DNA from: a virus
Lineage: Duplodnaviria > Heunggongvirae > Uroviricota > Caudoviricetes
Strand: one strand, 5' to 3'
IMG/VR virus record: IMGVR_UViG_2713896907_000002
Coordinates: 1-28,746 of that record
DNA length: 28,746 nt
In this document: piece by piece, positions 2,239 to 27,612 of the stretch
Numbering within the stretch: position 1 is the stretch's first letter
Layout: each line of letters opens with the position of its first letter
Program-made: the position numbers and the translations under genes
The notes under the pieces: generated by a model
Told to the model about the DNA's origin: nothing
The model's input: only the letters and a program-made list of their open reading frames with translations
Databases searched by the model: none

Positions 2239-3333
2239 ATGTTCATTACTAACACTGATGTTTTTACCTTTCTTTTCTTAGCTATATCATTAATAGCGGC
2301 TATTTTTGTCAAAAAAATAATCCCATCAACCGTAATAAATGTACATAATGACACAACCTTAGAAGGTTTAAGAGGCATTGCATGCTTATTTGTATTTATA
2401 AATCATGCTTCATATAGCATTCATCACATCGGAATACAAAATTGGCAAATGATGGGTGATTCACCATATACCGGGAGAATGGGAGCTTTCGGAGTGGAGA
2501 TATTTTTCTGTTTGACAGGGTACTTGTTTGCAAAAAAGATTCGCAAAGGAGATATAGACTTGTCATTTTTTGAAAAAAGAATCAGGAGGCTTGCTCCTGC
2601 ATATATATTTGTATCATTTGTAGTTTTTATATATTTCGTATTTATGAACTATAATGTTATTCGTGGTTACTACGATATATCGGCTTTGATCCAACAAATT
2701 TTCGGATTCGGTTTCTTTGGGAATAGAATATCTGTAAACGGTATGGTGGATACATCATTGAATGCTGTTGTGTGGACGCTTCCTTATGAATGGAAGTTTT
2801 ATGCAATAGTCCCCTTCGTAGCGGCTATTTATAAGCTAAGAAGGCCAATCCCTCTACTTATCGCATTTGGAGTAGCGACTGTTTGCATTGACTATTGGTC
2901 GAAAATGTTCTTGTGGGGGTTTTTCGTAACCGGATTCATTGCTTCATTCGTTGGTATTTTAGAAAATAGATATCTTAAGTATATCTCATATTACATAATG
3001 CTATTCCTATTTGCATATGCATTTAAGGGATCATTTGATATTCATGGTTTCCAAATGTTTGTCGTAGTATCTTTATTTTTCATAACATTTATTGCGGCAA
3101 GACCTAAGATATTCTCCATAGGAGTATTTGTTTACCTTGGAACTATAAGCTATAGCATTTATCTACTACATCAGGTAGTTACAACGGTTTTCATGAAATT
3201 AATCTCTGGGGTAATCGATCTACTTACCATAAATATGTATGAATACTTAATGGTCTGCATCATACCAATATCACTTACAATTTACTTATCATCTATTAGT
3301 TACAATAAAATAGAGAAAAAATTCATCAGATAA
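2239..3333 (+). CDS. Acyltransferase family 3 membrane protein (OafA/Oac-like O-antigen acetyltransferase), 364 aa
   Basis: ATG start. About ten hydrophobic helices. N-terminal region LEGLRGIACLFVFINHASY resembles the conserved R/H-containing first-helix motif of acyltransferase-3 proteins. Strongly AT-rich compared with its flanks and on the opposite strand to its neighbours. Confidence 0.8.
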   Translation: MFITNTDVFTFLFLAISLIAAIFVKKIIPSTVINVHNDTTLEGLRGIACLFVFINHASYSIHHIGIQNWQMMGDSPYTGRMGAFGVEIFFCLTGYLFAKKIRKGDIDLSFFEKRIRRLAPAYIFVSFVVFIYFVFMNYNVIRGYYDISALIQQIFGFGFFGNRISVNGMVDTSLNAVVWTLPYEWKFYAIVPFVAAIYKLRRPIPLLIAFGVATVCIDYWSKMFLWGFFVTGFIASFVGILENRYLKYISYYIMLFLFAYAFKGSFDIHGFQMFVVVSLFFITFIAARPKIFSIGVFVYLGTISYSIYLLHQVVTTVFMKLISGVIDLLTINMYEYLMVCIIPISLTIYLSSISYNKIEKKFIR

Positions 3334-3380: not shown

Positions 3381-5603
3381 TCAGCTGTTCGAGATTTTAC
3401 CAGATATCCTAAATCTTAGCGCTCCAGATTTGATGTAATTGTATGTGAGGAAAGTTCTTGTGCCATCAGATGCCACGGCATAGAACTGAATCTTTGTGAA
3501 GTCTGTAGCTCCTGTAGGAATAAATCCAATAACATCGACAGTTCCTGCTGGTAATGCATTCCCAAGCGCTGTCCTGACCTCTATCTCGCATCCTGCCCCT
3601 GGATAAAAACCAAGCCCTCTGGGAAGGGTGATTGTGATATTTCCTGTACCGCCTGTTGTTCCTGTAACATTTATACTTACATGCAAATCAACATGCTCAC
3701 CATCCCTCCTTGCAGTATATGTGCCAGTTTGTGTTACAGCTGTAGTATCATCGAAACCGATACTTCCAGTTAAGGCCGCATTAACCTGTAGTTCAGATTT
3801 AAATCCGCATATATTATTTCTCCACGGAATCGTTGGTTTATCACCATCCCATGTGATGGGTTGCGATGAAAAATGAGTTATTTTATTACCAAGAAATTTT
3901 AAATTAAACAAGTTGTTATTTATATCGCCAACAAGATAAGCAGCATAAAAAGGTAGCCCTCCCGTAACAACCTGTTCATTGTGAGAAGTTACAACAGCAT
4001 CGTGTATAGTATTGCTGGTTGAGCGAATCACAAACCCATAACCACCATTATCCATCGTTGCGCCAGAATCTGGATCTAATTTTGCAACGCTATCAGCATA
4101 TGGTCTATAAAGTGTATGCCCACCAGATATCAATTCAAAACCGATTAACATTTGCCTGTTAGGATATAAATCATCTGATGTTTTAGGATGTCCCCATGGA
4201 TGAGGATCTACAAGAGTATTCGCTCCGGTACCAGAAATGCGAATGCCTATTGGATAATCTATCGTTATAGGGTTTACAAAATGGCTATCACCAGTGCGAA
4301 TCCACAATCCAACTACCGACTTGCTTTCCCATTTCATAATTCCAAAGCAACTATGCATAATTGCGATTTCATAACCTATTGAAGGAATACCACCAATATC
4401 TGCCCCGCCTCTTAGCATCCCCCACGTTTCCATCTGACCTACCGTAACACCAGCTATATGCGTCATCAGAACACCAATTGCATCAACATGTTGGTAATAT
4501 ACGGTTCCCCAGTCAGTATTCTGCGTATGTCGTATGTGAATTCGTGGAATATAGGTACGCTTATCGCTATATGTGGTCGTTGGTGACATAATGTGATAGA
4601 CAGCCTTATAGCTATTTCCTGCGGCATCTACTGTTTGGAAATCACCAGTTGGATCTGCCCATATAACACCAGTCTGCAATACGCTAAGCCCTGCCAGATG
4701 CTTAATTGATGATTTAACCCGATAGACATTTGGCAGCCAAACTGTTTTGTTATTCTCATAAGCATAGTCATACGCATCCTGAATCATCACAGCCCAGTCA
4801 GTTTCTCCTGGATGATTTGCATAGAACTGCTCAGGTGTAACAAACTGCGAACGCGCAAATAGATCGTTTAAATCTGTTTGCACTGTACCGCTGGACATCG
4901 TGCCTATCAAACAACTTCCTGTTGGCTTCGCTAGTTCTATGAGAACATCAGCAGCAGAACCAGATTCTGGTAGTAGCATGATTGGGTTACCATTATCATC
5001 CATGCCTACAATTTTGTTTTTTCTCAACTCAACTGGTGGTAACTGCGGGATCATTTCTGCCGTGCGTAACGTTCTGCTAAAGAGAAGATCCGTATGCGAA
5101 GTGTTTCCAGCGCTAAGTGAGTCAGCATAATTCTTTGTCGCTGCATCCTGAGGGCGAATAGGGTCTCTTAAGTTTCTAATGTAGTTGTTTAGTGCGTCGT
5201 AATAATTAGCCACGAACGACGGCTTTCGCAGAACAAGGCTAAACCAACTACGCACTTGCTGGATCAGCATCGTCAGCTTATCGAACGCGTCTTCATGCAC
5301 CTCAGCGAAAAACTTTCCCTGATTGCGCAGATCAGTTTCCTGCGTAACCGGTAGCTCTCGTGATATAGAAATCTGATAACCGTTAGCCAACGCCTTCGAC
5401 AGAATTACATTACCGCCGTTATATCCTCCAGCTCCGGTAACTGTATAATCAGTATCAAGAGTCAGCACAGCAATATTTTCGTTAAGGTCAGAGACCTGAA
5501 CAACCAAGTCGGATTTTTTGAAAATACGGAAGGTATACGGAAATGATGTCGTAACGCCGTTACCTGTGTATTCGTTGTGGTCAACTTCGGTTGAGACCGT
5601 CAT
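3381..5603 (-). CDS. Tailspike / tail fiber protein (about 740 aa from the internal ATG)
   Basis: The track ORF starts at TTG (5705); the ATG at 5603 (MTVSTEVDH...) is preceded by GGAG. Large Gly/Thr/Asn-rich protein with beta-rich composition, located next to the host-range/seroconversion genes. Confidence 0.7.
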   Translation of the reverse strand: MTVSTEVDHNEYTGNGVTTSFPYTFRIFKKSDLVVQVSDLNENIAVLTLDTDYTVTGAGGYNGGNVILSKALANGYQISISRELPVTQETDLRNQGKFFAEVHEDAFDKLTMLIQQVRSWFSLVLRKPSFVANYYDALNNYIRNLRDPIRPQDAATKNYADSLSAGNTSHTDLLFSRTLRTAEMIPQLPPVELRKNKIVGMDDNGNPIMLLPESGSAADVLIELAKPTGSCLIGTMSSGTVQTDLNDLFARSQFVTPEQFYANHPGETDWAVMIQDAYDYAYENNKTVWLPNVYRVKSSIKHLAGLSVLQTGVIWADPTGDFQTVDAAGNSYKAVYHIMSPTTTYSDKRTYIPRIHIRHTQNTDWGTVYYQHVDAIGVLMTHIAGVTVGQMETWGMLRGGADIGGIPSIGYEIAIMHSCFGIMKWESKSVVGLWIRTGDSHFVNPITIDYPIGIRISGTGANTLVDPHPWGHPKTSDDLYPNRQMLIGFELISGGHTLYRPYADSVAKLDPDSGATMDNGGYGFVIRSTSNTIHDAVVTSHNEQVVTGGLPFYAAYLVGDINNNLFNLKFLGNKITHFSSQPITWDGDKPTIPWRNNICGFKSELQVNAALTGSIGFDDTTAVTQTGTYTARRDGEHVDLHVSINVTGTTGGTGNITITLPRGLGFYPGAGCEIEVRTALGNALPAGTVDVIGFIPTGATDFTKIQFYAVASDGTRTFLTYNYIKSGALRFRISGKISNS

Positions 5604-5711
5604 GTTAAATCTCCAGATAGTCGCACGCAGCACCCGTTGCGCCGCATATCTGGTTATTCTATTACCCAAAAAACCAGATATGGATAGAATAACTATAAAT
5701 ACCAATAGGTG

Positions 5712-6060: not shown

Positions 6061-6091
6061 GGTTTGTAATTACCAAATGGAGTGCTTATAT

Positions 6092-6106
6092 TTACCTTTG
6101 CGGTAA
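6092..6106. promoter_or_regulatory. TTACC-N5-GGTAA palindrome (perfect)
   Basis: TTACC TTTGC GGTAA about 30 nt downstream of the 85-aa gene stop and upstream of the structured leader preceding the antirepressor gene. Confidence 0.45.
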
Positions 6107-6133
6107 ATTTACATCGCACTCCTCTTGTGCCAT

Positions 6134-6185
6134 AGTAATCGGGCACTGGCAAAATCCAGTGCCGGGATTGGCGTCCCGGATTACT
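6134..6185 (+). ncRNA. Structured RNA element candidate (multi-stem fold) in the antirepressor leader
   Basis: Outer stem AGTAATC (6134-6140) / GATTACT (6179-6185) enclosing a hairpin GGCACTGG-CAAAAT-CCAGTGCC and an alternative hairpin CCGGGA-TTGGCG-TCCCGG. No ORF of note overlaps on either strand. Confidence 0.3.
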
Positions 6186-6198
6186 AAAAGGCGCATTC

Positions 6199-6218
6199 AC
6201 CGCACAAGCGGTTTTTTT
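6199..6218 (+). terminator. Rho-independent terminator candidate (short stem plus T7 run)
   Basis: ACCGC-ACAA-GCGGT stem-loop followed by TTTTTTT (6212-6218), between the 85-aa gene and the antirepressor gene. Confidence 0.4.
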
Positions 6219-6317
6219 ATGCGTATAGCACGGCCACATTCGTATTATGGTGGGCTGTGTGGGGGCACCGAAAGGTGCGCCGGGTCCTTTTAGCCGGTTA
6301 CGCCAACCCTGCACAGT

Positions 6318-6350
6318 TCACCACCAACCGATTGGCGTCGGTAGTGGTGA
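6318..6350 (+). promoter_or_regulatory. Hairpin immediately upstream of the antirepressor ribosome-binding site
   Basis: TCACCA (6318-6323) pairs with TGGTGA (6345-6350), enclosing CCGA-TTGGCG-TCGG. It shares the 10-nt GATTGGCGTC (6330-6339) with the upstream hairpin at 6166-6175. Lies about 12 nt before the AAGG Shine-Dalgarno of the ATG at 6376. Confidence 0.35.
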
Positions 6351-6375: not shown

Positions 6376-7071
6376 ATGACAGCTACAAAAAGCACGTCCA
6401 TTTTTTCTTTCGAATCCCAAGCCGATATACGAGTAATCGTCATTAATGGTGAGCCATGGTTTATCGCTTCAGATGTTTGTCGGGCTATAGGCATAGCAAA
6501 CCATCGAGATGCTGTTCGAAAACTTGATGATGATGAGAAGGGCGTCGCTTCAACCGACACCCCTGGCGGTGAGCAAGAATCGATCATCATCTCCGAGTCA
6601 GGCCTCTACACACTGATCCTCCGCTGCCGCGATGCGGTGACACCAGGCACTATCCCCTACCGCTTTCGTAAATGGGTTACAGGTGAGGTACTTCCTCAGA
6701 TCCGCCGCACCGGAAGCTACATTAAAAACTCGCTCCCGCAGGAAGAACGGATAAAGATGGTTGCCGACCAGGTAGCCAACGCCACGGCGTCAGCAGTGAT
6801 GCAGGCAATGAAGATAGAGAACAAAACCTACAGTGCCCCGCTGAAGCCCGGATACCGCAGCCTGATTCATTCTCCGTCTGGTGTTCTCGGCCTGACTGAG
6901 AACTCACTTCTGATGAATCTGCTGAACCAGTTACAGGAAGACGGGCACGACGTATCTGGCGCGGCGGCGGAGCTGACCACCATGTTCTGCTACATCGTCG
7001 GTGTGAGCAAATGCCTGCGTGATATCCAGATGCACGCGGAGTACATAAACGACAAGGCAGGGTTCTTCTGA
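6376..7071 (+). CDS. Antirepressor-like protein with N-terminal Bro-N domain, 231 aa
   Basis: ATG start. The N-terminus (FSFESQADIRVIVINGEPWFIASDVCRAIGIANHRDAVRKL) matches the Bro-N / phage antirepressor N-terminal domain pattern. The C-terminal domain is paralogous to the upstream 85-aa protein. Confidence 0.75.
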   Translation: MTATKSTSIFSFESQADIRVIVINGEPWFIASDVCRAIGIANHRDAVRKLDDDEKGVASTDTPGGEQESIIISESGLYTLILRCRDAVTPGTIPYRFRKWVTGEVLPQIRRTGSYIKNSLPQEERIKMVADQVANATASAVMQAMKIENKTYSAPLKPGYRSLIHSPSGVLGLTENSLLMNLLNQLQEDGHDVSGAAAELTTMFCYIVGVSKCLRDIQMHAEYINDKAGFF

Positions 7072-7079
7072 CGGGCGGC

Positions 7080-7098
7080 GGCACAGGGATGTGCCTTT
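7080..7098 (+). terminator. Weak stem-loop terminator candidate after the antirepressor gene
   Basis: GGCACA-GGGA-TGTGCC followed by TTTAAAT; the T-run is short. Confidence 0.3.
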
Positions 7099-7136
7099 AA
7101 ATAATTCTGTACAGATTGCAGGTGAATAGCTTACTA

Positions 7137-7151
7137 TTACCTCACGGGTGA
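7137..7151. promoter_or_regulatory. TTACC-N5-GGTGA near-palindrome (site family member, one mismatch)
   Basis: TTACC TCACG GGTGA about 100 nt upstream of the perfect site at 7238. Confidence 0.3.
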
Positions 7152-7188
7152 TCCATAGCGATTAGGCACCGATACAGGAGGAGCCCAC

Positions 7189-7221
7189 ATGAGAAAATTT
7201 GACGAGTACGAAGGCGTTTAA
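7189..7221 (+). other. Mini-ORF (10 codons, MRKFDEYEGV) with a strong Shine-Dalgarno, possible leader peptide
   Basis: AGGAGGAG (7176-7183), 5-nt spacer, ATG at 7189, stop TAA at 7219-7221. Lies between two palindrome sites upstream of the 211-aa gene. Confidence 0.25.
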
Positions 7222-7237
7222 CATTCGGATAGTTCAT

Positions 7238-7252
7238 TTACCCTAATGGTAA
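7238..7252. promoter_or_regulatory. TTACC-N5-GGTAA palindrome (perfect) overlapping the presumed -35 region of the 211-aa gene promoter
   Basis: TTACC CTAAT GGTAA. A TATATATTAT -10-like block (7273-7282) and GAGGTGA Shine-Dalgarno precede the ATG at 7293. The palindrome centre is about 42 nt upstream of a plausible transcription start. Confidence 0.5.
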
Positions 7253-7292
7253 ATCCCGCTTAAAGAAGCATCTATATATTATGAGGTGATGT

Positions 7293-7928
7293 ATGCCACA
7301 ACAACTGCTGAATCCGGCAAAGGTAACTGAGGTTTTCGCTCATCTGAACGAAACTCCAGACAACCGCGCCCTGTATTCAGAGTTAGTGAACGGCAACGAT
7401 GTCACATCTGATGTCAAAGGCGTTTCTCTGGCTCCTGGATACCGCGTTGTCCGTGTAGACGATCGTAAGAAAGGCGAGATTCCACAGGCGCACTTTGAAC
7501 TGTCATTGATAAATGACCTCACCGAAGAGGTAGTGTATTACAATCGTGTCATTATCCAGCCTGACAGCTATCTTAACTGCCGTCCTGTCACGCAGATATT
7601 GGTATGGAGAACCCAGAAGCCTAAGCATCGTGCTGTGCTTCATGATTTCGCCGGCATCATCTTCATGAACTACCTCTTGGAACGGTACGATATCATCGTG
7701 TCTGATCGCAACCAGACTCATGAAGGCATGTCGTTCTGGCAGGCTCGCATGTATGACGCACTGGAACTTGGCCTCCACCTCTATGGTTACGACATGATGA
7801 CATGCGAGCTGATAGAGATGAATAACGAGGAAGAGCTTGAGAAAGGTGAAACCTGGTTGTGGGGTGATGCGGAAAACTTCCAAAACAGATTGGCCATAAT
7901 TTCAAAGCATAAGCTGCCAATAAAATAG
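7293..7928 (+). CDS. Hypothetical protein, 211 aa (orphan accessory gene with its own regulatory unit and terminator)
   Basis: ATG start with GAGGTGA Shine-Dalgarno. Soluble-looking protein with no motif I recognise. Followed directly by a strong intrinsic terminator. Confidence 0.7.
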   Translation: MPQQLLNPAKVTEVFAHLNETPDNRALYSELVNGNDVTSDVKGVSLAPGYRVVRVDDRKKGEIPQAHFELSLINDLTEEVVYYNRVIIQPDSYLNCRPVTQILVWRTQKPKHRAVLHDFAGIIFMNYLLERYDIIVSDRNQTHEGMSFWQARMYDALELGLHLYGYDMMTCELIEMNNEEELEKGETWLWGDAENFQNRLAIISKHKLPIK

Positions 7929-7935
7929 TTCTTTA

Positions 7936-7958
7936 AGCCCGCGCTGCGGGCTTTTTTG
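7936..7958 (+). terminator. Rho-independent terminator
   Basis: AGCCCG-CGCTG-CGGGCT stem-loop followed by TTTTTT (7952-7957), 8 nt after the TAG stop of the 211-aa gene. Confidence 0.65.
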
Positions 7959-8029
7959 TGGACGAAACGAAAGTCAGTGCTACACTCATTGACGCCACAT
8001 TGAGGTGGCTTATAGATGGAAATTTCACA

Positions 8030-8191
8030 ATGAAAAAAGCATTTGCTGCACTGTTCGTTTTGTTGTCTCTGGTAGCTTCAACTCAGGCCTTTGCCGGTCG
8101 TTGTCAGAACGACAGCGATACTGCTGCTGACGGCTCCCGCTGCGGTGGGCGTTCTGCGGATTCCCGCCCGGGTGGCGGTGGCATTCGTTAA
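8030..8191 (+). CDS. Small secreted protein candidate (53 aa with a signal peptide)
   Basis: From the internal ATG: MKKAFAALFVLLSLVASTQAFA then G, a canonical signal peptide with an A-x-A cleavage site, followed by a Gly/Arg/Ser/Asp-rich tail with two Cys. A TTGACG-N16-TATAGA promoter-like element sits just upstream (7989-8016). Weak Shine-Dalgarno. Confidence 0.35.
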   Translation: MKKAFAALFVLLSLVASTQAFAGRCQNDSDTAADGSRCGGRSADSRPGGGGIR

Positions 8192-10863: not shown

Positions 10864-12666
10864 TTAACCTCTCAAGAAACACGCCACAGCGACATCAAAC
10901 AGGCTGGAATCCTGTATTGCCTGCTCACTTTCCCTGTTCGCTTCATCCAGTACTTCACGCGCACTGCGCGATTGTGGATTACCATCATCATCCAGCACGG
11001 TGATTATCATGTCAGGTGATTCAAGCAGCGAGTCTTCAGCTATGCGCAGATCAATATCTCCTGCCTGATCTGACATCATTTTTTGTTCTGCCTGTTGCAA
11101 TATTTTATCAGGCTCAAAAGGAGCTACTTCGTCTGGCGTCCTGACCTCTGCTGTTTTATAGAATGAAACAGCCTGAGCATTAAGTTCACTTTCTGCCTGC
11201 TGTCTCCGAGCCAGTTCTGCTCGAGCTTCAAAAAACTGACCGCCAGGCTCGTGCGGTGCCAACGCGTTACGGGAAAATTCCAAGCGTTCTTGTGCCTGCC
11301 GGATTCGTTGATCAATATCGCGAAGTCTGGCCTGTTTATCTGATCGAGCACGAGACAAAGCTTTACCGCTACCGGTTGGCTCTTCTGCAAGAATTTGTGC
11401 ACGCTGTTCAGTGAGATTTTCAATAATTCGTTGGCTATTAGCGATTTCAGACTGGTAAACCTGTCTATCTCCACGCGGCAAAAGCTGCGCGGCCTGTTCT
11501 TCAAGCAACCGATTTTCTATAGCGCGCGCCGTTACTCCATCATCTATAGATGACAGAGCCTCATTAACTGCCTGAGACAGCAGACTCTTGCGCCCAGGAA
11601 TTTCACTGAAAGATGCAGACTCAACAATGCTGGCAACGTCTACAGGTCTCCCCTGGCTAACATCAGACATAGCTTTTCGCAGAGCCTGAATGTGAGAATT
11701 GCGCGAAAGCACGTTGATCGGCACGCCGGGAGCAATATCAATTTCAGCATGATGAGCGGCATTCGCCGCCAGTGCAGCATCGATATCAACTGGTGAAAAA
11801 TTTGGTGCGCTTGTAGACTCGCCGCGAGAGTTAATAAATCTGCCGACACCACCAAACGCCACTCCAAGAACAGCATCAATAGCAATTGCCTGTCGATCCA
11901 ACACATCATACTGGTTAGCCATTTCGCTATAGCCACCATCACGAAGCGTTTTTGCAGTAAGCCCACGCTGTGCCATACCGAACGCAATATTTGTACCTGC
12001 GGCATAGGCAATATCTGGCGTTGCACGTACTGCTGTTACTGCGGCGCGTCGCACTGAACTTTCACCCGTCCGCGTAAGCTGAGCCGCCACACCTTCCGCC
12101 AGCGCACCACCAGCACGTAACCCGAGGCTCATAGGGATCAGTGTTCCGGCACCAGCAGTAATGCCCTGCACTAATCCCGCTTCCTGCGCCGTCCTGAAAT
12201 CAACACCCTGTGCTGTCAGCCGTTCAAACTCAGAAAAACCCTGTAGCGAAGTTACCGCCGCTGCACCTCCGACAGGACCACCGAGCGTTGTACCGACAAC
12301 AGCCTGCCCGCCCATATCGAACAACCCATAAAGAACCTGCCCGGCGGTTCCGGTTGTCGCGGCATCAGGCGTCAGCCGCTTAACCTGCTGCTCTGCTAGT
12401 TTTCTCTGCTCAGCAATGTATGAAACTGAAGTGTCATTGAGCGAGGTGTTTTCGTTAACAAACTGAGCAATCGGGGATACGATTTTATCCATCCCTGCCC
12501 ATAGCAACTGATCTGGCTTTGCCACCAGCCCGGAGTACAAACCAGACAATGCCGCTCCTACAGCATTGTCGAAAAAACCAACATCGCTGTTAAAGCCAGC
12601 TGGATTTGATGCTGCTTCGTCAAGCTGCTGATTCTGGTTTACTGGATTAAGGCCAAAGTAACTCAT
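10864..12666 (-). CDS. Internal virion / ejection protein candidate, 600 aa
   Basis: ATG start overlapping the upstream stop (ATGA). Ala/Gly-rich N-terminal half and a charged coiled-coil-like C-terminal half. Confidence 0.55.
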   Translation of the reverse strand: MSYFGLNPVNQNQQLDEAASNPAGFNSDVGFFDNAVGAALSGLYSGLVAKPDQLLWAGMDKIVSPIAQFVNENTSLNDTSVSYIAEQRKLAEQQVKRLTPDAATTGTAGQVLYGLFDMGGQAVVGTTLGGPVGGAAAVTSLQGFSEFERLTAQGVDFRTAQEAGLVQGITAGAGTLIPMSLGLRAGGALAEGVAAQLTRTGESSVRRAAVTAVRATPDIAYAAGTNIAFGMAQRGLTAKTLRDGGYSEMANQYDVLDRQAIAIDAVLGVAFGGVGRFINSRGESTSAPNFSPVDIDAALAANAAHHAEIDIAPGVPINVLSRNSHIQALRKAMSDVSQGRPVDVASIVESASFSEIPGRKSLLSQAVNEALSSIDDGVTARAIENRLLEEQAAQLLPRGDRQVYQSEIANSQRIIENLTEQRAQILAEEPTGSGKALSRARSDKQARLRDIDQRIRQAQERLEFSRNALAPHEPGGQFFEARAELARRQQAESELNAQAVSFYKTAEVRTPDEVAPFEPDKILQQAEQKMMSDQAGDIDLRIAEDSLLESPDMIITVLDDDGNPQSRSAREVLDEANRESEQAIQDSSLFDVAVACFLRG

Positions 12667-15176: not shown

Positions 15177-15721
15177 TATAATCCTCCGGGTAATCTGGTT
15201 CCTGCTGCTGCCCCGATTGGCGCAGGAGTGCTTTGAGTAAACGGACTCCACGTCCCACCAAACATCTGGTACGCACCGTATGCCTTCAGAGGCGCGGTGA
15301 GCAATGTTGTTGCTGCTCCCACATTCCCCTGTTTACGGGCTGAACTGGCTTCTGCTTTATAGTTGGCAGCCTGAACCTGATAACCGTAAGCCTCACGTTG
15401 CGCGTTATTCACCGTCGTCAGCGCATCAAGAGCGCCAAACTGAGCAGTGTCACCAAATATATCCAGCGCGTTACCGGTAGATAAATCAGCGCCGGTAGCC
15501 CCCATTGTCGCCGCTTGTGTGCCAAGCCGCTGCCGGGTCTCTCTGCGCCGTTGCTCAGCTTCAGCGTTACCTCTGTTTATTGCATCATTTGCCTGAGCAG
15601 TGGCTATATCTGCGTTCGCTTCTGCAACCTTCGAGGCATACTTTCCCTGTTGGTACTGGGTGTATGCCTGAATGCCACTCATGGCAAGCATTGCGCCACC
15701 AGCAATAACCGGATCACACAT
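15176..15721 (-). CDS. Internal virion protein candidate, 181 aa (T7 gp14-like position)
   Basis: ATG start. Ala/Gln-rich with a glycine-rich hydrophobic N-terminus. Tightly coupled to flanking genes. Confidence 0.5.
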   Translation of the reverse strand: MCDPVIAGGAMLAMSGIQAYTQYQQGKYASKVAEANADIATAQANDAINRGNAEAEQRRRETRQRLGTQAATMGATGADLSTGNALDIFGDTAQFGALDALTTVNNAQREAYGYQVQAANYKAEASSARKQGNVGAATTLLTAPLKAYGAYQMFGGTWSPFTQSTPAPIGAAAGTRLPGGL

Positions 15722-16185
15722 TATTTTCTCTCCATGTGAAATCTGTGGAAATTAAAACCAAGAGCACCATAAGGCGCGGCTTCTTCAAGCCTGAATCCAA
15801 GCCAGTGCAGCCATGCTTTGGCAACATGGTTTCGCTCGTCGACGTAGTTTTCCAGGCGCGGATAAACTGCCAGCATCTGCTGCAATACAGGGCGGCAGTG
15901 GCGCAGAAATGTCTTCTGATATTTTTCAATACGGCTGGTCCCGACCAGCCAGGGCGTACCATTGCCACCGATCATTGACGCCGGAGATACGCCAAACATG
16001 GTTACCAGTTCTCCGTTCGCGAACCCTGACCAGGCCATAGTCGCAGTGCGCAGACCAACACGCAGCGCATCTTCGGTAGTCATCAGCGATACCGCATACA
16101 GTTCGTCAATATCAGCCTGACGAACATCCGGCAAAATCATCTGAAGATGCTCTTCGGTAGCGGGAATAATTTGAACATCGATCAT
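15721..16185 (-). CDS. Hypothetical virion-module protein, 154 aa (T7 gp13-like position)
   Basis: ATG start overlapping the stop of the upstream 823-aa gene (ATGA). Confidence 0.5.
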   Translation of the reverse strand: MIDVQIIPATEEHLQMILPDVRQADIDELYAVSLMTTEDALRVGLRTATMAWSGFANGELVTMFGVSPASMIGGNGTPWLVGTSRIEKYQKTFLRHCRPVLQQMLAVYPRLENYVDERNHVAKAWLHWLGFRLEEAAPYGALGFNFHRFHMERK

Positions 16186-25433: not shown

Positions 25434-26909
25434 TTATGCATAAGGGTCATAATCCGTTATGGCCCTTCCCTGCTGGCTTTGCTGTCCTGGTATATTTATG
25501 CGTTTCGAGACCGGGAAAGCAAACGTCAGCAGTAGCGCATCGCCTTTACCAGGAGAACGCCCAAGACGCTCTTTGATATCTTCCTTCGGTTCGATAACGA
25601 TTTTACCGTCCACACGAACTTTGTACTCTGCCGCCGACAGGTCGTCTGCAGTTTCCTGGTCATCCAGCATGCCGCCCAGCCTCAGCCATGTCTTACATGA
25701 GTTGAACATCTCCCCACGCTTGTTAAGCATCTGCGGGTCAGTGGACGCACCGCTGAACGGAACAAGTTGCCATGTACGTCCCCAGCCATCACCGATTGAC
25801 TTCAAACCGGTTCCGTAACCGAAGTCGATGAACACCGCGTCAGCCTGGTACTGGTCTTCAAAGTCAGCGATACGCTTCGCCATAATCAGATCGTCGGTGG
25901 TCTTGTTGCCGGTCCACAGCACCTTACTGTGCAGCCCCTGCCGCAGGTATATCACCGCGTCATCAACACCGGAGTATGCAGGGTCAACGCCGATTATCAC
26001 CGGAGCATGTGCCACCTGCGCAGCAGTTACCACCCGTTTCATTGCCTCGTCAGTAAGACCGGTAGGGATAAACTGCAATTCAGATGCATCAGGGAATATA
26101 CCGCGCACACGTATTTTAACGAAGTCGCTGTCTTCCCCGTAGTCATCAACCCATTTCTGCAACTGCTGTTTGTTGGTGCCTTCCACCGTCCGGCTGTCAA
26201 TCTGCGCAGTTTTCCAGCGGTGTTTATATTTGCGGAAACATTCGCGGAAACGTCCGGTATTACGCGTCGGGTTTCCGAACGCCACCCAGATAATCTCAGT
26301 GTCTTCGTCCGTTAGCGCACCCTCGGCAACTTCCCACACCAGATCCGCAATGTTCGACGCTTCATCGAATACCACGATGATGCGTTTGCGCTCGTTGTGT
26401 AGTCCGGCGAATGCCTCAGTGTTGTGCTCAGACCAGGGGATTGCGTCAGCTCGCCACCGCTTGTCGTGCCCAGGATCATTGCTGTACATCGCGGTAGCGG
26501 TACAGGTAAACCAGTCTTTCGTGATAGCAAGGTTCGACCACTTGATAATTTCCGGCCAGGTCTTCGTTCGTAGCTGGTTGTCGGTGTTGGCGGTCACCAC
26601 GACCTTACAATCCTCGCAAGTGGACATGCCCCAGTTGATGAGCATTGAGATGAATGCGGATTTACCAATACCGTGACCAGAAGCACGTGCCAGCATAAGC
26701 GGCTGATAACGCGTCTCTGGATTCTGCAGGTGATCACGTATCTCTCGGAACGCATCGGCCTGCCACTGACGTGGACCGGTAGCATGTGCCAGTTCAGTCC
26801 CCTCTTCCCCCCAAGGGAACGCATAGAGGGCATAGCCAAGCGGATCGTGAGTGAACCCTGCAATATCTTCGATTAACTGCTCTTCAGGAGATAACGCTGC
26901 ATCTGTCAC
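25434..26909 (-). CDS. Terminase large subunit, 491 aa
   Basis: GTG start overlapping the small-subunit stop. Walker A-like ASGHGIGKS, Walker B-like IIVVFDEAS, and a C-terminal nuclease-type acidic segment (VIIGVDPAYSG). Confidence 0.85.
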   Translation of the reverse strand: MTDAALSPEEQLIEDIAGFTHDPLGYALYAFPWGEEGTELAHATGPRQWQADAFREIRDHLQNPETRYQPLMLARASGHGIGKSAFISMLINWGMSTCEDCKVVVTANTDNQLRTKTWPEIIKWSNLAITKDWFTCTATAMYSNDPGHDKRWRADAIPWSEHNTEAFAGLHNERKRIIVVFDEASNIADLVWEVAEGALTDEDTEIIWVAFGNPTRNTGRFRECFRKYKHRWKTAQIDSRTVEGTNKQQLQKWVDDYGEDSDFVKIRVRGIFPDASELQFIPTGLTDEAMKRVVTAAQVAHAPVIIGVDPAYSGVDDAVIYLRQGLHSKVLWTGNKTTDDLIMAKRIADFEDQYQADAVFIDFGYGTGLKSIGDGWGRTWQLVPFSGASTDPQMLNKRGEMFNSCKTWLRLGGMLDDQETADDLSAAEYKVRVDGKIVIEPKEDIKERLGRSPGKGDALLLTFAFPVSKRINIPGQQSQQGRAITDYDPYA

Positions 26910-27502
26910 TGATTACCATCCTGACGTTCTTTGAGTCGCTTCCTGGCTGCCGCTATGCGATCAGCAATTGTCACATTCACATTAACATCCAAGCGTTCTT
27001 TGAATGCGTTGACGTCGACGTGCTTACCAATCAGTTCTAGGTTCTTCACCTTGTCAGGCCATTTAATTTTTTTGAGGATTGTCTCTATCGAGTCCTCGTT
27101 CATGTTCATGATGGTCGATGACAGATCAAAGCCGCTAAGCGTAGTGCGCCATATTTTCGGCCACTCGCGGATTGGCTTAAGGCTCCCATCGTCGTTGAGG
27201 ATATCAATCACGTCCATCTGGTCGATCTCCACCAGGCGCATGAGAACGTAATCAGCACTGACGCGCATTCGTTTGTTGCGCTCCTCCATCAACTCGGCAA
27301 TCCGTTTTTGAATGCGTTCATCGCGCATCATGACACTGGCTTTAACTGCCGCTGTATTTGGGGAGAATCCTGCGTTAATCGCAGCCTGAGTCTGGTTTTC
27401 AGGCGTTTTGATGTATGACTGGCAATAAGCCTCCTGCATTGCTGTGAGCGGCTTAAATTGCGTTGATTTGCGTTTATAGGTTTTAGGTTCAGCAGGCATC
27501 AT
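26906..27502 (-). CDS. Terminase small subunit (about 198 aa from the internal ATG)
   Basis: Track ORF starts at TTG 27580. The first ATG (27502, MMPAEPK...) is preceded by AGGGTGG. The N-terminal extension would translate the palindrome as low-complexity VTITTTVTIT, so the shorter form is preferred. Helix-turn-helix-like region AAINAGFSPNTAAVKASVMM; directly upstream of the large subunit. Confidence 0.65.
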   Translation of the reverse strand: MMPAEPKTYKRKSTQFKPLTAMQEAYCQSYIKTPENQTQAAINAGFSPNTAAVKASVMMRDERIQKRIAELMEERNKRMRVSADYVLMRLVEIDQMDVIDILNDDGSLKPIREWPKIWRTTLSGFDLSSTIMNMNEDSIETILKKIKWPDKVKNLELIGKHVDVNAFKERLDVNVNVTIADRIAAARKRLKERQDGNQ

Positions 27503-27519
27503 AACCACCCTGGTAATTG

Positions 27520-27534
27520 TTACCGTTGTGGTAA
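27520..27534. promoter_or_regulatory. TTACC-N5-GGTAA palindrome (perfect) immediately upstream of the terminase small-subunit start
   Basis: TTACC GTTGT GGTAA, with an extra GGTAA half-site at 27512-27516. Centre is about 25 nt upstream of the ATG at 27502. Confidence 0.45.
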
Positions 27535-27612
27535 TAGTAACATGCAAAATAAAGCCGCCATAGTTGGCGACAGTATTCAAAACCCATCAAATTCATCATG
27601 CATAATCTACTC

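Follow-up and report, generated by a model that had tools for sequence, protein, structure and literature searches.

A predicted GNAT-fold protein as exchangeable cargo of a putatively repressor-gated slot in a Uetakevirus genome

The stretch of DNA analysed here, called the window throughout, comprises 28,746 nucleotides of a caudovirus genome (positions 1 to 28,746 of IMG/VR record IMGVR_UViG_2713896907_000002). Judging from its sequence we assign it to an epsilon15/phiV10-type (Uetakevirus) prophage or phage, and its gene order is that of phiV10 and epsilon15. Between a Bro-N antirepressor gene and a small gene of the phage backbone lies a gene for a 211-amino-acid (aa) protein, the subject of this work, which a first-pass annotation had described as an orphan and as a self-contained unit with two palindromic sites, a leader open reading frame (ORF) and a terminator of its own. 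We report that this gene occupies a slot in which other prophages carry unrelated genes at exactly the same place, and that its product is predicted to have a strongly diverged GNAT (acyl-coenzyme A (CoA) N-acyltransferase) fold. The features of the locus are collected in Table 1.

The 211-aa gene as cargo of a conserved slot

Codon comparison of the 211-aa gene with its Dickeya homologue gave 88 synonymous and 23 nonsynonymous differences, which bears out the coding assignment made in the first pass: the gene is real and under purifying selection. The slot flanks were found in 518 of 5426 complete Escherichia coli genomes and the 211-aa gene itself in 12-13. E. coli IAI39 (NC_011750) has the gene at 98.8% identity. 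PhiV10, TL-2011b and the O157 typing phages (all Uetakevirus) match the 2.2 kb around the gene at 95-97%, in the flanks only; the gene is missing from close relatives such as phiV10, from epsilon15 and from the majority of related prophages. Hundreds of E. coli prophages carry unrelated cargo at this site, including a DUF4760 gene, a 108-aa gene together with a DUF2335 gene, a 59-aa gene together with a YafO-family toxin gene, and a pair of genes for proteins of 55 and 147 aa, while phiV10 has nothing of note there. Another allele from this protein family, WP_001260052.1 (210 aa, 30% identity, E = 2e-17), holds the slot in other E. coli prophages, including one of a sequence type 131 (ST131) genome (loci L084 1019-1651, L085 and L025 1360-1991). 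The copy of this allele in the unverified Phi05_2388 B contig is frameshifted in a T-run, probably as a result of a sequencing error. No alternative cargo protein tested had a match in PADLOC-DB 2.0. The 211-aa gene is present or absent at a fixed site among otherwise near-identical phages, and we are highly confident that it is exchangeable accessory cargo; the moron-like, regulated accessory gene proposed earlier agrees with its absence from phiV10 and its replacement by unrelated cargo. The G+C content of the gene is not deviant (47.6%, against 48.7% for the window).

An alignment of the left intergenic regions showed that a hairpin behind the antirepressor gene, a candidate sigma-70 promoter and the palindrome that we call operator 1 are common to all variants. 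The hairpin is possibly a weak terminator; a terminator scan made no call on it. The same promoter/operator geometry recurs at 6064-6092 of the window (score 9/12) and precedes the cargo of TL-2011b, the DUF4760 prophages, strain YZLc4-1 and the Dickeya prophage. Some variants differ by a 7-nt indel (GACTGTG or GACTGGG; window 7114-7121) between the candidate -35 and -10 elements, which moves the best -35 from TGTACA with an 18-nt spacer to TTGCAG with a 17-nt spacer and leaves a plausible promoter in both versions.

At its right end the slot is closed by an intrinsic terminator with an 8-bp, G+C-rich stem (-16.1 kcal/mol, z = -2.8). Identity between the window and a DUF4760 locus resumes at 7934, and loci with the YafO-family cargo or the second allele end in the same hairpin. 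The stem in YZLc4-1 (3195-3225 of its locus L007) carries a compensatory double change (GCCAGC/GCTGGC versus GCCCGC/GCGGGC), which is evidence that the hairpin is under selection. The strong terminator noted in the first pass is therefore present, but as it is shared by unrelated cargo types it belongs to the slot and is not the gene's own. The same is true of the promoter and operator 1, so that the self-contained unit dissolves on comparison: in Uetakevirus no promoter and terminator travel with the gene, these signals being common to all cargo. The gene for the 52-aa signal-peptide protein adjoins every cargo type. A match of the Rfam Trp_leader model at 7852-7959 (E = 0.15; 22.8 bits against a gathering threshold of 41) was rejected, as it corresponds to the terminator hairpin.

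Predicted repressor operators and the leader segment

The palindromes that the first pass had placed at 7137 and 7238, with a spacing of 101 bp, belong to an enriched family. A scan for TTACC-N5-GGTAA, allowing at most one mismatch, found nine sites in the window where 0.58 were expected, a number reached in none of 100 shuffles, and 14 sites in phiV10 against 0.65 expected. The phiV10 sites stand at almost every transcription-unit start and frequently follow a terminator directly. The divergent region between the helix-turn-helix repressor gene and a cro-like gene holds two of them, and two further ones lie directly 3′ of the repressor gene. At equivalent places the RefSeq record of epsilon15 labels seven ATTACC-N5-GGTAAT sites as 'protein_bind: repressor, lysogeny'. 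By this sequence correspondence, both palindromes are members of the Uetakevirus operator family ATTACC-N5-GGTAAT and predicted sites of the repressor (Rep). In the related phage SPC32H the repressor is reported to act as a tetramer on palindromic sites (PMC9638917, discussion). When the ZX5 repressor, reported to be identical to that of phiV10, was overexpressed, transcripts of the holin and endolysin genes fell by more than 99.9% (PMC9782041).

Most of the palindromes share their first T with the end of a -10-like hexamer, and the promoter-context score, computed by script, averages 7.0 at palindromes compared with 4.2 at random positions. We also considered boxB-like RNA hairpins and rejected them; the loops are not conserved between sites and the sites are strand-symmetric, and a DNA operator therefore fits the palindromes better. 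A supposed LexA box near 7105-7120 was discarded, since its spacing proved wrong on inspection.

Two observations on operators elsewhere in these genomes are recorded here. A second motif, CATATGTGGTT, is over-represented in phiV10 (seven copies with at most one mismatch, 0.74 expected), with positions that include 3308, 20921, 24739, 33132 and 35116; in the window it occurs at 5645, 5672 and 24401. Its copies are often some 10-40 nt away from a Rep operator, the one at the lysis promoter overlaps the -35 region, and the cargo slot has none; a further regulator, for instance a late activator, may bind this motif. In addition, two adjacent operators at 27502-27534 (minus strand) fall inside the 5′ end of the longest ORF for the terminase small subunit (26906-27580, TTG start), where the coding strand reads ...GGTGGTTATGATGCC, as it does in phiV10 (sites 87 and 105). 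The true terS start is probably the ATG directly after the second operator, which would place the operators immediately upstream of terS.

Between the two palindromes of the slot lies a 10-codon mini-ORF with a strong Shine-Dalgarno sequence, which the first pass had taken for a leader ORF of the 211-aa gene. Both elements are present as described, but the pairing alone is within chance: AGGAGG occurs nine times in the window, and three of these nine copies have an ATG 3-10 nt later. All copies of the mini-ORF found were identical, and they therefore provide no evidence that it is coding. The segment 7152-7234 is 100% identical in prophages carrying DUF4760 (two loci, with identity extending to 7234), whereas in YZLc4-1 the same 211-aa gene follows directly after a single operator, without the mini-ORF; the mini-ORF is also absent from TL-2011b and from the Dickeya prophage. 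These comparisons assign it to the DUF4760-type leader, unlinked to, and dispensable for, the 211-aa gene, so that its assignment as the gene's leader falls.

Matches to the YZLc4-1-type cargo start exactly at 7238, which places operator 2 at the probable recombination junction. Because the identity with the DUF4760 leader ends at 7234 and the mini-ORF-free YZLc4-1 match begins at 7238, the arrangement in the window is best read as a recombinant, in which a slot leader of DUF4760 type was joined to a cassette of operator half plus gene; the second palindrome thus looks like the scar of a cassette exchange at an operator. The leader RNA (7160-7310) is not structured beyond shuffled sequences (z = +0.98), which leaves no basis for a leader-peptide mechanism acting on the 211-aa gene, and the mini-ORF as an attenuator of this gene was rejected on that ground and because the gene occurs without it. 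The DUF4760 prophages themselves (L005 1558-1710 and L006) have the mini-ORF, then after 13 nt a strong terminator-like hairpin (GGGGCC-atta-GGCCCC followed by TTTT), and then DUF4760, with a leader fold of z = -2.3; there, Shine-Dalgarno sequence, mini-ORF and hairpin look like a leader-peptide or attenuator arrangement for the DUF4760 cargo.

The wider neighbourhood has features of its own. The RNAs 5′ of the Bro-N antirepressor gene (6130-6328) form an antisense control arrangement like that of P1/P7 immI, here in a Uetakevirus, and an operator at 6092-6106 is flanked by promoter-like hexamers at 6064-6136. As in immI (c4 antisense RNA, icd, ant), C4 and isrK-like RNAs precede the antirepressor gene, and as with the C1 operators dispersed over the P1 genome, operators are scattered here at most transcription units. 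The operator sequence and the repressor family are unlike those of P1 C1, however, and the likeness concerns the neighbourhood and not the 211-aa gene. The epsilon15 record also notes an HHpred match of the internal virion protein gp13 (11122-11586) to the GNAT acetyltransferase 3fbu; the equivalent in the window lies at about 15721-16185 (minus strand). If real, this match would mean a second, unrelated GNAT-like protein in these phages, packaged in the virion.

Table 1. Features of the cargo slot and its surroundings, in window coordinates
Feature	Position	Strand	Remarks
Lysis cassette, then Acyl_transf_3 O-acetylase gene	2239-3333 (O-acetylase)		Start of the window's gene order
Tail fibre gene	3381-5705	-	
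gp19-like gene			Between tail fibre and Bro-N antirepressor genes
c4 target a1b1	6130-6182	+	Rfam cmscan RF03163, 45.1 bits, slightly under gathering threshold (46.7)
isrK-like RNA	6143-6218	+	Rfam cmscan RF01394, 76.9 bits (gathering 50)
C4 antisense RNA	6243-6328	+	Rfam cmscan RF01695, 77.7 bits (gathering 45)
Bro-N antirepressor gene	6376-7071	+	Left neighbour of slot; Pfam Bro-N 2.4e-21; PHROG anti-repressor Ant 1.6e-62
Hairpin GGCACAgggaTGTGCC then TTTAAATAATT	7080-7095	+	Directly after antirepressor stop; invariant in 6/6 aligned loci
Candidate sigma-70 promoter TGTACA-18-TACTAT	7108-7137	+	-10 ends on first T of operator 1
Predicted operator 1, TTACCTCACGGGTGA	7137-7151		Repressor-operator palindrome family; left boundary of cargo slot; kept in all cargo variants
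AGGAGGAG and 10-codon mini-ORF MRKFDEYEGV	7176-7221	+	AGGAGGAG at 7176-7183, ATG at 7189, 5 nt apart; TAA to 7221
Predicted operator 2, TTACCCTAATGGTAA	7238-7252		No abutting promoter
211-aa protein gene	7293-7928	+	PHROG 1349; ATG start, GAGGTGA at 7283-7289
Intrinsic terminator	7935-7958	+	Right boundary of slot; stem AAGCCCGC/GCGGGCTT at 7935-7953, T-run to 7958
52-aa signal-peptide protein gene	8033-8191	+	Part of phage backbone; adjoins slot on the right; PHROG 14503, 1e-37
Internal virion and structural genes		-	Right of the 52-aa gene

A GNAT fold predicted for a widespread family

The 211-aa protein matches PHROG 1349 ('unknown function') end to end (2.9e-78). The first pass had called it an orphan; we found 94 close homologues in Enterobacterales, all named 'hypothetical' or 'phage protein', and a profile search of 1.84 billion cluster representatives returned 916 at E ≤ 1e-3, nearly all of them stand-alone proteins of about 200 aa. 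A diverse-profile search extended the family to Pseudomonas and Azotobacter and, in a large database, retrieved no named proteins. NCBIfam gave no match for the 211-aa protein, and a literature search for the family's protein accessions, its PHROG number and GNAT prophage defence genes returned nothing specific.

An AlphaFold model built on 40 sequences was confident, with a predicted local distance difference test (pLDDT) of 85.6 and a predicted template-modelling score (pTM) of 0.82. A Foldseek search with a predicted structure, which the first pass had proposed as a check, returned the GNAT fold: the nearest solved structures in the PDB were the acetyl-CoA-binding C-terminal domain of Mycobacterium tuberculosis ICL2/Rv1916, Naa40/NatD and Hat1, with 5-13% identity in the structural alignments to the nearest GNATs. 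In the BFVD the best matches were uncharacterised phage proteins (template-modelling scores up to 0.72-0.82, including one of the Agrobacterium jumbo phage Atu_ph07), followed by proteins labelled NAT_SF. The predicted structure has the GNAT features at fold level, namely a mixed beta-sheet, the V-shaped splay of beta4 and beta5, and flanking helices, to which the 211-aa protein adds an N-terminal helical segment and an extra strand. On this model it very probably has a strongly diverged GNAT fold; the likeness to the superfamily is at the level of the fold only, there being no detectable sequence similarity. The earlier statement that the protein has no recognisable motif thus stands for Pfam and NCBIfam, both blank, but not for the fold, which predicted structure makes recognisable.

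Conserved across the family are N24, Y82, Q101, W105-R106, F124, D138-x-x-Q-T-x-x-G145-x-x-F148-W149, A156, Y164, W190-G191 and I203-S204. Placed on the model, they would map to the equivalents of beta4, alpha3, the beta5-alpha4 turn and beta6, the parts of a GNAT that contact CoA and substrate. The N-terminal Met-Pro (window 7293-7298) is shared by all 40 closer relatives and by 69 of 127 diverse members; in several relatives annotated with an N-terminal extension, an internal MP(Y/K/Q) marks the point at which the family starts, and the first 12 residues are modelled with low confidence. A catalytic role for this proline was dropped in view of the 69 of 127. C-terminal DUF5397 and N-terminal Phd/YefM-like extensions were set aside as well, since each occurs in single distant relatives and none of the loci retrieved contains a counterpart.

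Every relative is a single gene, usually with an intrinsic terminator at once 3′, and no partner or neighbour gene was conserved in 54 genome loci and about ten other contexts. The Dickeya prophage has its relative in the same slot with the same palindromes. In a P2-like prophage of Pseudomonas lundensis the gene lies at the prophage end beside the portal gene Q, in a Serratia P2/186-like prophage it adjoins the integrase gene, again at the prophage end, and in the lambdoid phage LLS it follows directly after Rz/Rz1. Others lie in an island with RelB, ART-PolyVal and MksE-like genes, in an Erwinia islet between the housekeeping genes ihfA and btuE, and in an Enterobacter islet after ssb. In Photorhabdus and Xenorhabdus the islets, again of one gene among housekeeping genes, occupy conserved sites on the chromosome (for example, between ycgM-ycgN and hslJ-ldhA), with usually two paralogues per genome, about 62% and 52% identical to the window protein, which suggests long-term retention outside prophages. 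A sigma-70-like promoter, TTGATT-17-TACACT, is common to the copies in Erwinia and Serratia, which also have terminators of their own. A homologue or structural relative is also present in the jumbo phages Burkholderia BCSR5 and Agrobacterium Atu_ph07.

Proposed gating of the slot and possible roles of its cargo

We favour, at a rough probability of 0.55, a reading in which a fixed, repressor-gated slot receives exchanged cargo, here a GNAT-fold protein that acts in phage-host or phage-phage conflict. The slot lies directly 3′ of the antirepressor operon, with a weak candidate sigma-70 promoter whose -10 abuts a predicted Rep operator on the left and an intrinsic terminator on the right, and different phages exchange cargo in it, probably by recombination at its conserved ends. 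In lysogeny, Rep bound to the operators would keep the slot silent or weakly expressed; upon induction or fresh infection, it would be transcribed as a monocistronic early message. The 211-aa protein, in the cytoplasm, would then bind acyl-CoA and acylate an amine of a protein or small molecule belonging to the host or to a competitor, modifying host physiology in the conflict. Control of the slot by Rep is, by analogy, somewhat better than an even bet, and the abutment of the promoter on an operator of an annotated family argues for expression on induction or infection and not for constitutive expression in the lysogen. The chances that the protein is an active acyltransferase are even, and a role in conflict is just as finely balanced. 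Precedents exist: AcrVA5 is a GNAT-fold anti-CRISPR that acetylates Cas12a, and TacT and AtaT are GNAT toxins, all of them small GNAT-fold proteins of mobile elements that acetylate a macromolecule in conflicts.

Several observations weigh against this reading. The candidate slot promoter is weak, scoring 7.5/12 where the scan tool's threshold is 9/12, and Rep control is argued by analogy. Many relatives at housekeeping sites (Photorhabdus, Xenorhabdus, Erwinia, Enterobacter) have a plain sigma-70-like promoter, and for these copies a constitutive role that benefits the host fits at least as well as one in the lytic cycle. PADLOC-DB 2.0.0 gave no family at E ≤ 1 for the 211-aa protein. With regard to the enzyme, Pfam yielded neither a match for the 211-aa protein nor a recurrent family in 98 diverse relatives at E ≤ 1, PDB sequences gave no match to the single sequence or to two profiles, and hhalign against a profile of E. 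coli RimI returned a probability of 0.2%, that profile being shallow (effective number of sequences (Neff) 1.4) because it comprised only sequences with identities of 80% or more. The best structural match, the C-terminal domain of ICL2, is a non-catalytic acetyl-CoA sensor. Finally, the canonical motif A, Q/R-x-x-G-x-G/A, is absent: the window protein reads H-D-F-A-G at 117-121, without the first glycine, at the place where the wider family has a consensus of G-L-A/P-G followed by V-F-F-x-Y-L-L before alpha3, as positioned from the secondary structure of the model and a non-significant hhalign alignment. Given this difference from the consensus, the protein may plausibly, as judged from the model, bind an acyl-CoA cofactor.

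The regulatory points bear on the foremost rival, a classical moron that is expressed in the lysogen and benefits the host, either as a single-gene anti-phage or superinfection-exclusion factor or as an enzyme acylating an incoming toxin or antibiotic; we regard this as possible but doubtful. Like known phage morons (lambda bor, phiCTX ctx, the P2 old/tin hotspot), the 211-aa gene is a single gene bounded by promoter and terminator and is present or absent in near-identical phages, and its relatives stand at equivalent P2-like and lambdoid hotspots, in positions of lysogenic conversion (beside Q, next to the integrase, after Rz/Rz1). Lambda carries bor after Rz/Rz1. The promoter and terminators of the Erwinia and Serratia copies and the stable paralogue pairs of Photorhabdus and Xenorhabdus point the same way, as do the slot neighbours, which include a toxin-antitoxin pair and membrane proteins, and the two alleles of 30% identity found in one slot, which suggest diversifying selection. 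In this phage family, however, the exchange affects the coding cargo only, promoter/operator and terminator belonging to the fixed backbone, and the promoter abuts a prophage-repressor operator, which predicts repression in the lysogen and departs from the usual logic of a lysogen-expressed moron. The lack of any matching PADLOC 2.0 model and the relatives in BCSR5 and Atu_ph07 also speak against it. Operator control and the jumbo-phage relatives would point to a function in lytic growth, for example host takeover or counter-defence, whereas the moron positions and the stable chromosomal copies with plain promoters would suggest that the gene serves the host during lysogeny, for instance in defence, exclusion or detoxification; for this phage we place lytic growth slightly ahead, and only because of the operator.

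The structural points bear on a second rival, in which the protein is GNAT-like but non-catalytic and binds a ligand (acyl-CoA or another) or a partner as a sensor, regulator or inhibitor. We consider this unlikely, but a serious alternative; in its ligand-sensing form the role would resemble that of the top structural match. The missing glycines of motif A in the window protein and the lack of any Pfam acetyltransferase model in the 98 relatives speak for it; against it, polar residues are conserved at the cofactor and substrate positions of GNATs (D138, Q141, T142, G145, R106, Q101, Y82, Y164), and the more distant members keep the G-L-A/P-G loop.

A GNAT-type toxin of a toxin-antitoxin module, resembling TacT/AtaT and silenced by Rep or by a small antitoxin, is very unlikely: no context examined had a conserved partner gene, nor the ribbon-helix-helix (RHH)/DUF1778 antitoxin that such a module would carry, the 10-codon mini-ORF is absent from YZLc4-1, and other GNATs score higher structurally than the toxins do. 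Known GNAT toxins match Pfam Acetyltransf models, which this family does not. Least likely of all is a core structural or housekeeping protein, such as a tail or ejection accessory protein, as might be supposed from the position, with the tail-fibre region on one side and genes for internal virion proteins on the other, given that the gene is absent from phiV10, epsilon15 and most related prophages, that the family occurs in unrelated phage types and at non-prophage chromosomal sites, that the fold is enzyme-like, and that no homology to a structural or housekeeping phage protein was found, the outcome by which the first pass would have considered its own proposal refuted.

Morons and GNAT-fold enzymes are well known, and PHROG already lists the family among those of unknown function. 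What is new here is the fold assignment, the description of a putatively repressor-gated slot with its cargo repertoire and two divergent alleles, and the reattribution of the mini-ORF and terminator. It is tempting to speculate, although we think it improbable, that PHROG 1349 and its distant relatives are a new class of single-gene conflict effector: a cryptic GNAT-fold enzyme whose divergent alleles are swapped in a repressor-gated early slot and which, as counter-defence, would acylate a part of the host's immune system, a signalling molecule or an anti-phage chemical, the copies in Photorhabdus, Xenorhabdus and Erwinia being domesticated. A function in phage-host conflict is a reasonable, though unproven, proposal for the 211-aa gene. 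The two alleles of 30% identity in one slot offer a natural comparison for experiments, and the rule of a fixed, predicted repressor-gated promoter plus terminator could be used to harvest accessory genes from about 10% of complete E. coli genomes. Should the protein prove to be an active acyltransferase in conflict, a widespread family of more than 900 clusters (50% identity), which neither Pfam nor PADLOC 2.0 contains, would join the short list of enzymatic single-gene effectors.

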